64,000 nt of DNA. Origin: a virus. Taxonomy: Duplodnaviria > Heunggongvirae > Uroviricota > Caudoviricetes. The stretch lies in the IMG/VR virus record IMGVR_UViG_3300012956_000001, positions 25,730 to 89,729 of that record; one strand, given 5' to 3'. Below, piece by piece: positions 39,004 to 39,296 of the stretch (position 1 is its first letter; each line of letters starts with the position of its first letter). Both the position numbers and the translations under genes were made by a program. The notes below the pieces were generated by a model that saw nothing but the letters and a program-made list of their open reading frames with translations, was not told the DNA's origin and made no database searches.

Positions 39004-39296
39004 CGTGAACTTAAATAGATGAGTGTTAACAGTAATCAGAGTCGTGCCTGATCAAAGTCGGCGGCCATTGAGGCCGTTTTAAGTTCATTGTATGTCAAGT
39101 AGTACAGAAACATGGGCCTAAAAAACCAACAATATGTCAACCGTAATCGGAGTCGTGACCGATTGAGCTGGCAGGCCGTTCGCTCGGCGGGTCCACCACT
39201 TTTATCACGAACATGAGCTGAAGTAGGATAATGTCAACCACCGTAGTTGGAGTCGTGTCCAACTGATGTCTACTAGGCTCGCCACTTAACACGACA
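39004..39296 (+). ncRNA. Three tandem copies of an unknown RNA motif (TGTYAAC + AGTCGTGN-loop hairpin)
   Basis: atcag-agtcgtgc-ctgat; taatcgg-agtcgtga-ccgattg; tagttgg-agtcgtgt-ccaactg. Confidence 0.7.

Follow-up and report, generated by a model that had tools for sequence, protein, structure and literature searches.

How a large tRNA array serves the phage that carries it is debated, with codon supply set against escape from tRNA-targeting defences, and such arrays also hold long-unexplained non-tRNA RNAs, among them species 1 and 2 of phage T4, GOLLD and ROOL. What, then, are the three short, diverged elements that fill one spacer of the array examined here? The window analyzed, 64,000 nucleotides (nt) in all, comprises bases 25730–89729 of an IMG/VR phage record (IMGVR_UViG_3300012956_000001) that is complete, spans 217.7 kb, has direct terminal repeats and probably comes from activated sludge. 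Its + strand is a very large tRNA array from ~15 kb to ~56 kb, in which a spacer of 304 nt separates tRNA-Gln(CUG) (38929–39000, +; Rfam tRNA, 56.6 bits; ARAGORN) from tRNA-Asn(GUU) (39305–39379, +; Rfam tRNA, 52.1 bits; ARAGORN). Three diverged units occupy this spacer; the 3′ end of tRNA-Gln lies 4–6 nt before unit 1, and tRNA-Asn begins 9 nt past the pseudoknot strand of unit 3. From sequence features, we consider it somewhat more likely than not that the units belong to a rare new family of small RNAs that mimic the acceptor end of tRNA and are matured by tRNA-processing enzymes.

A preliminary description of the locus had reported three units in which TGTYAAC is followed by a hairpin whose stem differs but stays paired around an AGTCGTGN loop, each within its own closing helix. 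Sequence, fold and a pair table bear this out, placing the TGTYAAC elements at 39024–30, 39135–41 and 39232–38 and the AGTCGTGN loops at 39040–47, 39151–58 and 39251–58. From 5′ to 3′, each unit consists of the closing helix (P1), a purine-rich joining strand that ends in the box RUGUYAAC-(CAC)-YGUA, the hairpin (P2) and a tail complementary to the hairpin loop. The P2 loop has 8 nt, AGUCGUGN, of the form N-GUCGUG-N, with the central six bases invariant. In units 1 and 2, a further short hairpin (P3) is directly adjacent to the 3′ strand of P1. The units are about 70–100 nt long, and those of the window are only about 65% alike. A 44-position covariance model of the core (R1) has exactly three matches in the window, at 52.7–54.6 bits, with the next match at 10 bits, and a degenerate pattern run over the whole 217.7-kb genome finds the same three copies only. 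The RNA is read from the + strand, because on the opposite strand the G.U pairs of P1 and P2 would turn into A-C mismatches, and + is also the strand of all the tRNA genes. Two minus-strand readings were dropped: an open reading frame (ORF) at 39137–39292 is broken by indels in the closest relative described below, and the TGTCAA of the box, taken as a reverse-complement –35 hexamer, is followed by no –10 element on that strand.

Unit 1 (39007–39096, +; 53.5 bits with R1) is a degenerate copy. Its P1 pairs 39007–15 with 39078–86, its box GUGUUAAC lies at 39023–30, P2 (39033–39/39048–54) closes the loop AGUCGUGC (39040–47), and P3 is formed by 39061–66 and 39072–77; it has no NCCA after P1. Unit 2 (39114–39210, +), the alanine-type unit, has a P1 of GGGCCU (39114–19) and GGGUCC (39189–94), with G1-C72, G2-C71 and G3.U70, followed by A-CCA (39195–98) and a linker (39199–204); its box AUGUCAAC is at 39134–41, its P2 at 39144–50/39159–65 with the loop AGUCGUGA (39151–58), and its P3 at 39175–78/39185–88. 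Unit 3 (39215–39295, +) lacks P3. Here, P1 joins GAGCU (39215–19) to GGCUC (39276–80), with an inner helix at 39222–26/39270–74, and is followed by G-CCA (39281–84); the box, again AUGUCAAC, is at 39231–38, and P2 (39244–50/39259–65) closes the loop AGUCGUGU (39251–58). Units 2 and 3, like unit 1, were defined from sequence, fold, R1 and the pair table.

The preliminary description had proposed a covariance search for homologs. In the window, R1 finds only the three copies just described, but five further units are present in three other phages, for a total of eight units in four phages. A lake-water relative, the Joint Genome Institute contig L248, was reached through the protein of 226 amino acids encoded near the units (91% identical); in its 193-nt Gln–Asn spacer, units 2 and 3 have orthologs but unit 1 does not. 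Two IMG/VR phages were found by pattern scans built from the shared features: L282/L323, a distant relative whose copy of the neighboring protein is 34% identical, with two units, and L333, with one. Units are named W (this window, W_U1–3), R (L248; R_U2 and R_U3), V (L282; V_A and V_B) and X (L333; X_1). Their placement is the same in all four phages: on the strand of the tRNA genes, flanked by tRNA-Gln and tRNA-Asn, and beginning 3–7 nt past the tRNA-Gln end. Copy number is labile (1, 2, 2 and 3). In a more distant relative, L249, whose neighboring protein is 41% identical, tRNA-Gln and tRNA-Asn are adjacent, with a 5-nt spacer and no unit. L322, also a more distant relative and found with a profile of the 226-amino acid family, has no unit in its 12.7-kb locus, only a weak R1 match (2694–2730) without the loop. 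A pattern match in L331 was rejected as chance, being antisense inside a 922-amino acid ORF with no tRNAs nearby. Wider searches were negative. With cmscan against all 4227 families of Rfam 15 (E up to 10, units of three phages), there was no match on the units, and the window spacer region gave the flanking tRNAs only; blastn against GenBank phages likewise matched only the flanking tRNAs. Pattern scans of GTDB genomes gave 3 matches, all chance; loose scans of viral contigs gave chance matches only; and in a scan of metagenome contigs, all of the matches listed (at least 120 loci) were chance, a result that carries no weight as to absence. The family is thus new to Rfam and, within these searches, rare. 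In L282 (3684–3760, –), the tail of V_B, ACACGAC, is followed by a second ACACGA and then by ~75 nt of extra spacer before tRNA-Asn, with hairpins CUC-GCAA-GAG and UCGGUU-UAGA-AACCGA; this stretch may represent a further small element or the remains of a unit.

Pairing of the loop with a downstream strand, with the variable base compensated, had been reported for units 2 and 3, and it is found in both: 39153–58 pairs with UCACGA at 39205–10 over 6 bp in unit 2, and 39252–58 with ACACGAC at 39289–95 over 7 bp in unit 3. Unit 1 had been said to have no clear partner. This needs amending, as GUAUGUC at 39090–96, in the homologous position, is a weak candidate partner, giving C-G, G.U, U-A, G.U, C-G, a U×U mismatch and G-C, in which the variable base is compensated as C:G; the loop–tail duplex has an energy of –2.9 kcal/mol, as against –7.2 to –10.6 kcal/mol in the other units. 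A 6–7-nt complement downstream of the loop arises by chance in 0.4–2.9% of shuffles per unit. We aligned the eight units from the four phages (alignment A7) and computed statistics over the P2 and pseudoknot cells. In A7, 93.6% of these cells form standard pairs, compared with 81.3% in column shuffles, and none of 500 shuffles reaches the observed value; sliding the 3′ partners by 1–3 columns lowers pairing to 25–48%, and the covariation score of 0.406 compares with 0.03–0.09 in these slid controls. Changes on both sides are seen in four of the seven P2 pairs and in the N:N′ pair of the pseudoknot, five double-changing pairs in all, and one P2 pair occurs as all four of C-G, U-A, A-U and G-C. 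The other six pseudoknot pairs, GUCGUG with CACGAC, are essentially invariant. Of the N:N′ pairs, four are U:A, two are A:U and one is C:G, and assignment by hand adds a second C:G in unit 1, so that the variable loop base matches its tail partner in 8/8 units. Each loop pairs with the tail of its own unit; in W and R, the tail of the neighboring unit would give a mismatch. One loop nucleotide precedes the pseudoknot strand and none follows it, which is an H-type layout, and P2 and the pseudoknot helix presumably stack, as in the classical H-type geometry.

The contrast between six constant loop bases and a freely varying P2 stem suggests that the loop has a sequence-specific role beyond pairing in cis and that the tail is a cis-acting mask or clamp. 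As for targets in trans, the + strand shows no enrichment of CACGAC, with 47 occurrences where 53 would be expected, and among the noncoding RNAs the hexamer occurs only in tRNA-Phe. The longer loop complement CACGACU falls in one noncoding RNA gene only of the genome, tRNA-Phe(GAA) (37227–37302), at 37251–37257 (+), and because the hexamer is not enriched genome-wide, this occurrence is probably chance. In the units that carry P3, P1 and P3 abut without a spacer to give about 11–13 stacked pairs, which is the length of the acceptor/T-arm minihelix of tRNA. The P3 loops are variable (UUCGCU, GCUGA, GAGA, AUUGA) and are not T loops, and P3 and J1 are highly variable. A possible helix between the box and J2/3 can be drawn in R_U2 (UCAAC/GUUGA), V_A (UCAAUC/GGUUGA) and V_B (CAAG/CUUG) but is absent or shifted in W_U1, W_U2, W_U3 and X_1.

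The comparison of the window with L248 shows how the units evolve. When public contigs are aligned to the region, the lake-water relative has window positions 39003–39122 replaced by 10 letters; unit 1 (window 39003–39107 versus L248 9442–9446) is an insertion/deletion difference between phages that are otherwise 90–93% identical here. In unit 2, there are two double compensatory changes, C-G to G-C at P1 4:69 and A-U to U-A in one P2 pair, and one further change adds a seventh P1 pair. P3 has been rewritten in L248, yet it is still a hairpin that abuts P1. Unit 3 has 3 differences over ~89 positions, none in P1, P2, the pseudoknot or the CCA, while the adjacent ORF region is 9.4% different. 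All helix changes between the two phages are compensatory or pair-adding, except one at a helix end in unit 3.

The ends of the units resemble the acceptor end of tRNA. P1 starts with G in 8/8 units, with U at –1 in 5/8, and NCCA directly follows P1 in 7/8 (ACCA in four, GCCA in two and UCCA in one). In sequence and pair table, then, these units have a helix from G+1 followed by a single-stranded NCCA, as a tRNA-like acceptor end does. The bases that flank the CCA vary, but the CCA is constant. It is a property of the units and not of the array, because a 3′ CCA is encoded neither by any of the genome's 59 tRNA genes (G000, window 3157–56266) nor by its transfer-messenger RNA (tmRNA). Nearly all of the tRNA genes are followed, directly past the end called by ARAGORN, by a U (UA, UG or UU in most cases); together with the missing CCA, this suggests that a single 3′ processing signal is used throughout and that a CCA-adding enzyme is needed.

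Exactly one unit per phage (W_U2, R_U2, V_B and X_1) has G1-C72, G2-C71, G3.U70 and A73. The alanine identity set of bacteria includes G3.U70, A73, G2-C71 and, as a minor element, G4-C69, and G3.U70 is the major determinant for alanyl-tRNA synthetase (AlaRS), effective also in minihelices (PMC9976931). Pairs 4–6 of the alanine-type units vary (C-G/G-C; C-G/U.G/U-A; U.G/C-G), and the minor element G4-C69 is present in R_U2 only. Past the CCA, the linker reads N-UU(A/U) in 6/7 CCA-bearing units, and the tail N′CACGA(C) begins 4–7 nt after the CCA. RNase E of Escherichia coli cuts 1–3 nt past an encoded CCA (PMC2190699), and in our reading the post-CCA linker may resemble such a cut context.

The phage also encodes an RNase P RNA of its own (48526–48789, +), inside the tRNA array. 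It is a reduced RNA of bacterial type A, 264 nt long, with a score (100.1 bits) right at the cut-off. Two segments of the model, 43 and 24 positions long and probably corresponding to P13/P14 and P18, are missing; the L15 sequence GGGUAG is kept, including the RCCA-binding GGU. A second motif-bearing phage has a similar RNase P RNA gene (L348; G001:C1:30217–30554, –; 72.8 bits, E 1e-23). RNase P separates polycistronic tRNA transcripts (PMC7049720). It makes use of the RCCA–GGU contact, and its non-tRNA substrates include pre-4.5S RNA, C4 antisense RNA and pseudoknots that need a 3′-RCCA (PMC11143913, PMC12710915). Within the Gln–Asn spacer, neither a sigma-70-like promoter nor an intrinsic terminator is predicted, and the units are therefore expected to be co-transcribed with the tRNAs. 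One run labeled as RNA-Seq that matches the region covers tRNA-like pieces only, with no reads on the units.

Four features that the preliminary description did not report, namely the position in a tRNA operon, the G-start of P1 with NCCA, the alanine set and the unit 1 partner, point to acceptor-end mimicry with maturation by RNase P and 3′ enzymes. In this proposal, each unit would be an extra small RNA gene inserted like a tRNA gene in the + strand tRNA operon, and RNase P would cut 5′ of G+1, releasing the unit from tRNA-Gln. On real tRNAs, the T loop is used by RNase P and by the CCA-adding enzyme. Because the units lack this loop, RNase P would use P1 together with the contact between RCCA and L15. 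In the primary transcript, the 3′ trailer would mask the invariant loop and keep the CCA-N-UU linker single-stranded. Two fates could follow at the 3′ end. A cut just after the CCA, somewhat the less likely fate, would leave a free CCA end and an unmasked loop, and the member with G3.U70 could then be charged by AlaRS; this would fit the alanine set, because the end would be chargeable. In the other fate, to which we lean slightly, the trailer would be retained, protected by the pseudoknot, and the CCA would be displayed internally. In either case, the unit could act during infection as a mimic of the tRNA acceptor end, as decoy, sponge or cofactor.

A more specific version, which we regard as doubtful and offer tentatively, is that the unit with G3.U70, A73 and CCA is a natural alanine-accepting mini-RNA, neither tRNA nor tmRNA. 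Its trailer would be a built-in mask, and a cut after the CCA would free both a chargeable end and the GUCGUG loop, so that the RNA could serve, charged or uncharged, as an acceptor-end mimic. Were this so, the alanine mini-RNA could sponge or mislead AlaRS, EF-Tu, or defence toxins that modify the CCA or cleave the acceptor, and it could also bring alanine outside normal decoding.

Several points weigh against acceptor-end mimicry. The argument draws on eight units from four related phages only, so the counted pairs are not independent events, and the conservation of G3.U70 comes from four sequences. The pseudoknot partner lies 3′ of the CCA, which conflicts with a simple tRNA-like mature end; the units have no T loop or D arm, and the tRNA covariance model and ARAGORN are blind to them; and unit 1 has no CCA and a weak pseudoknot.

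Other explanations are less probable, in our view, but each accounts for part of the data. The units could be purely cis-acting punctuation that guides or times the processing of tRNA-Gln and tRNA-Asn, for example as an entry site for RNase P or RNase E, with the excised pieces functionless. They do occupy the exact place of a tRNA–tRNA spacer, the unit-less relative L249 simply abuts tRNA-Gln and tRNA-Asn, the copy number varies, and unit 1 is dispensable in L248. But other tRNA pairs of the same arrays manage without such an element, and the invariant six-base loop, the covarying pseudoknot and the alanine set exceed what a processing site needs, so we judge this explanation unlikely. The units could also be decaying relics, either degenerate tRNA pseudogenes or a selfish repeat drifting in the array: unit 1 looks degenerate and is missing from the nearest relative, and the order P1, arm, (P3), P1′, NCCA is loosely tRNA-like. 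Against decay stand the compensatory changes that preserve the helices, the small divergence of unit 3 (3/89) beside 9.4% in the adjacent ORF region, and a loop that is invariant across phages whose neighboring protein is 34–91% identical, in some comparisons only 34–39%. Further, no tRNA model or relaxed ARAGORN run recognizes the units consistently: there is no tRNA (RF00005) match on them at E up to 10, standard ARAGORN finds none, and its relaxed modes give inconsistent pseudo-tRNAs. We therefore give decay very little credence.

The preliminary description had favored an RNA that binds a ligand or protein, or a small ribozyme. That the units are structured RNA, with covarying stems, a pseudoknot and homologs in three other phages, stands, and the data also fit a protein-binding RNA, broadly understood; the more specific classes fare less well, as the Rfam search gave no ribozyme or riboswitch match and the locus has no expression platform or downstream ORF. 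Small ribozymes are common in phage settings, and a new class of self-cleaving RNA that cuts the tRNA operon transcript would account for the compact pseudoknotted fold, the invariant single-stranded nucleotides and the tandem copies on a phage. Nevertheless, the hammerhead, twister, twister-sister, pistol, hatchet, hepatitis delta virus and hairpin models find nothing in the three phages at E up to 10, and the topology, in which a loop pairs with a tail outside the closing helix, is unlike all of those classes. Nor is a ribozyme needed, because the conserved NCCA and G+1 are recognition features of existing tRNA-processing enzymes; a ribozyme thus seems very unlikely. Slightly more improbable still are tandem, riboswitch-like aptamers that sense a ligand and control read-through or processing of the downstream tRNAs. 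The similar tandem domains suit this idea, as does a pseudoknot that could be ligand-dependent, and the neighboring tRNAs (His, Asn) have GUN anticodons while the loop GUCGUG is two GUN triplets, a post hoc match. Yet there is no terminator, a tRNA gene follows the units, one of the phages carries just one unit, and no binding core is obvious in elements whose P3 and J1 are highly variable. A coding explanation takes the box AUG and the UGA after P2 as start and stop of a peptide of 10–11 residues (MSTVIGVVTD or MSTTVVGVVSN). The two are in frame in W_U2, W_U3, R_U2 and R_U3, and the 3-nt indel between unit types preserves the frame; however, V_A and X_1 lack the start codon (GAG), V_B and X_1 have no nearby stop, and most copies have no preceding Shine–Dalgarno sequence. 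The broken frames in two phages tell strongly against the peptide. Changes in this frame between the window and L248 number 3 non-synonymous to 1 synonymous, two of the former being the compensatory pair in P2, so that substitutions track RNA pairing and not codons, and a conserved peptide is correspondingly hard to credit. We hold it still harder to believe that the units act as DNA, whether as dyads bound by protein or as hairpins in single-stranded DNA that serve replication, recombination or homing-endonuclease targeting. HNH homing-endonuclease genes are indeed present in the array, and the units contain inverted repeats, but conserved loops with variable arms are the reverse of a dyad-binding site, the G.U pairs work on the + strand only, and the long-range P1 and pseudoknot are sensible only in a single strand of the polarity of the tRNA genes.

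Among known systems, the closest kind is the stable RNAs of T4 species 1 and 2, and the closest mechanistic analogues are hairpin-type RNase P substrates and alanine minihelices. The T4 RNAs (rnaC and rnaD) are likewise small non-tRNA cistrons beside tRNA genes, in a phage cluster with a homing-endonuclease gene, where they follow tRNA-Arg; their function is still unknown (PMC9697503). They differ in being larger (119 and 139 nt) and in having no GUCGUG loop, loop–trailer pseudoknot or tandem paralogs; a T arm resembling that of tRNA is present in rnaC, and the end of rnaD reads CACC and then A. A search of the T4 tRNA cluster with R1 gave no match, and the folds of rnaC and rnaD differ from those of the units; what they share is the genomic setting only. 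In the non-tRNA substrates of RNase P (pre-4.5S RNA, the P1/P7 C4 antisense RNA and pseudoknot models), as in the units, a G+1 helix followed by a single-stranded RCCA replaces the full tRNA body (PMC11143913, PMC12710915), and C4 is, like the units, phage-encoded. Those substrates are single genes outside tRNA arrays, with other sequences, whereas cleavage of the units is only predicted. The alanine-type units share G1-C72, G2-C71, G3.U70, A73 and CCA with the tRNA-Ala minihelix and the tRNA-like domain of tmRNA but have no T arm, D-loop analogue or tag frame; their CCA is followed by a conserved back-pairing trailer, and G4-C69 is found in 1/4 of them. The units do not qualify as tmRNA (RF00023), with no match to clan CL00001, no T arm, and short frames after GUC|GUG that are not conserved. 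In plant viruses, tRNA-like structures of the turnip yellow mosaic virus type also combine a viral pseudoknot with an NCCA acceptor mimic that tRNA enzymes, including RNase P, handle (PMC11143913). In that type, however, the pseudoknot builds the acceptor stem and the CCA is the genomic 3′ terminus, while in the units, it links the loop of a distal hairpin with a stretch past the CCA, in a DNA phage operon. GOLLD and ROOL are phage-associated structured RNAs of unknown function whose genes typically neighbor tRNA genes, with which they may be co-transcribed (PMC5737381). They are five to eight times the size of the units and form multimeric cages; they have no sequence relationship to the units and do not imitate an acceptor end. 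Type III toxin–antitoxin repeats were considered and rejected. In ToxI-like systems, short tandem repeats that are almost identical lie immediately upstream of the gene for an endoribonuclease toxin, but the units are 80–100 nt long and only about 65% alike, their neighbors are tRNAs, and the next ORF has no family match.

The units are small, with clear testable features: G+1, NCCA, G3.U70, the invariant loop and the compensated pseudoknot. If acceptor mimicry is functional, they would represent a novel means by which a DNA phage engages the machinery that processes, charges or targets tRNA and a natural example of minihelix substrates so far known mainly in vitro. If they are mere processing spacers, they would show that non-tRNA cistrons can be grafted into tRNA operons.

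Other residents of the array round out the setting. Inside it lie a GOLLD RNA (47342–47801), 8 kb downstream of the units, and the tmRNA (55929–56269), and HNH homing-endonuclease ORFs are scattered through it. The next ORF downstream of the units (39537–40217, +) encodes the 226-amino acid protein, which has no Pfam or PHROG match and is kept at 34–91% identity in related tRNA-array phages, always within the array; neither it nor a 704-amino acid ORF had close relatives among the viral contigs searched. An 80-nt element at window 44796–44875 (+) has a tmRNA-like acceptor stem (GGGCCGU/ACGGUCC) with G3.U70, A73 and a canonical T arm, with no tag region and no encoded CCA. The 10-mer GUAAGUCGUC is common to this element and T4 rnaD, and it failed to extend to a convincing alignment. 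In the array of L248, ORFs at 12167–12839, 13664–14683 and 18116–19093 match release-factor domains (PCRF, RF-1), RNA ligase, Cpn10 and an HD domain, so that a translation and RNA-repair toolkit is located within that tRNA array.

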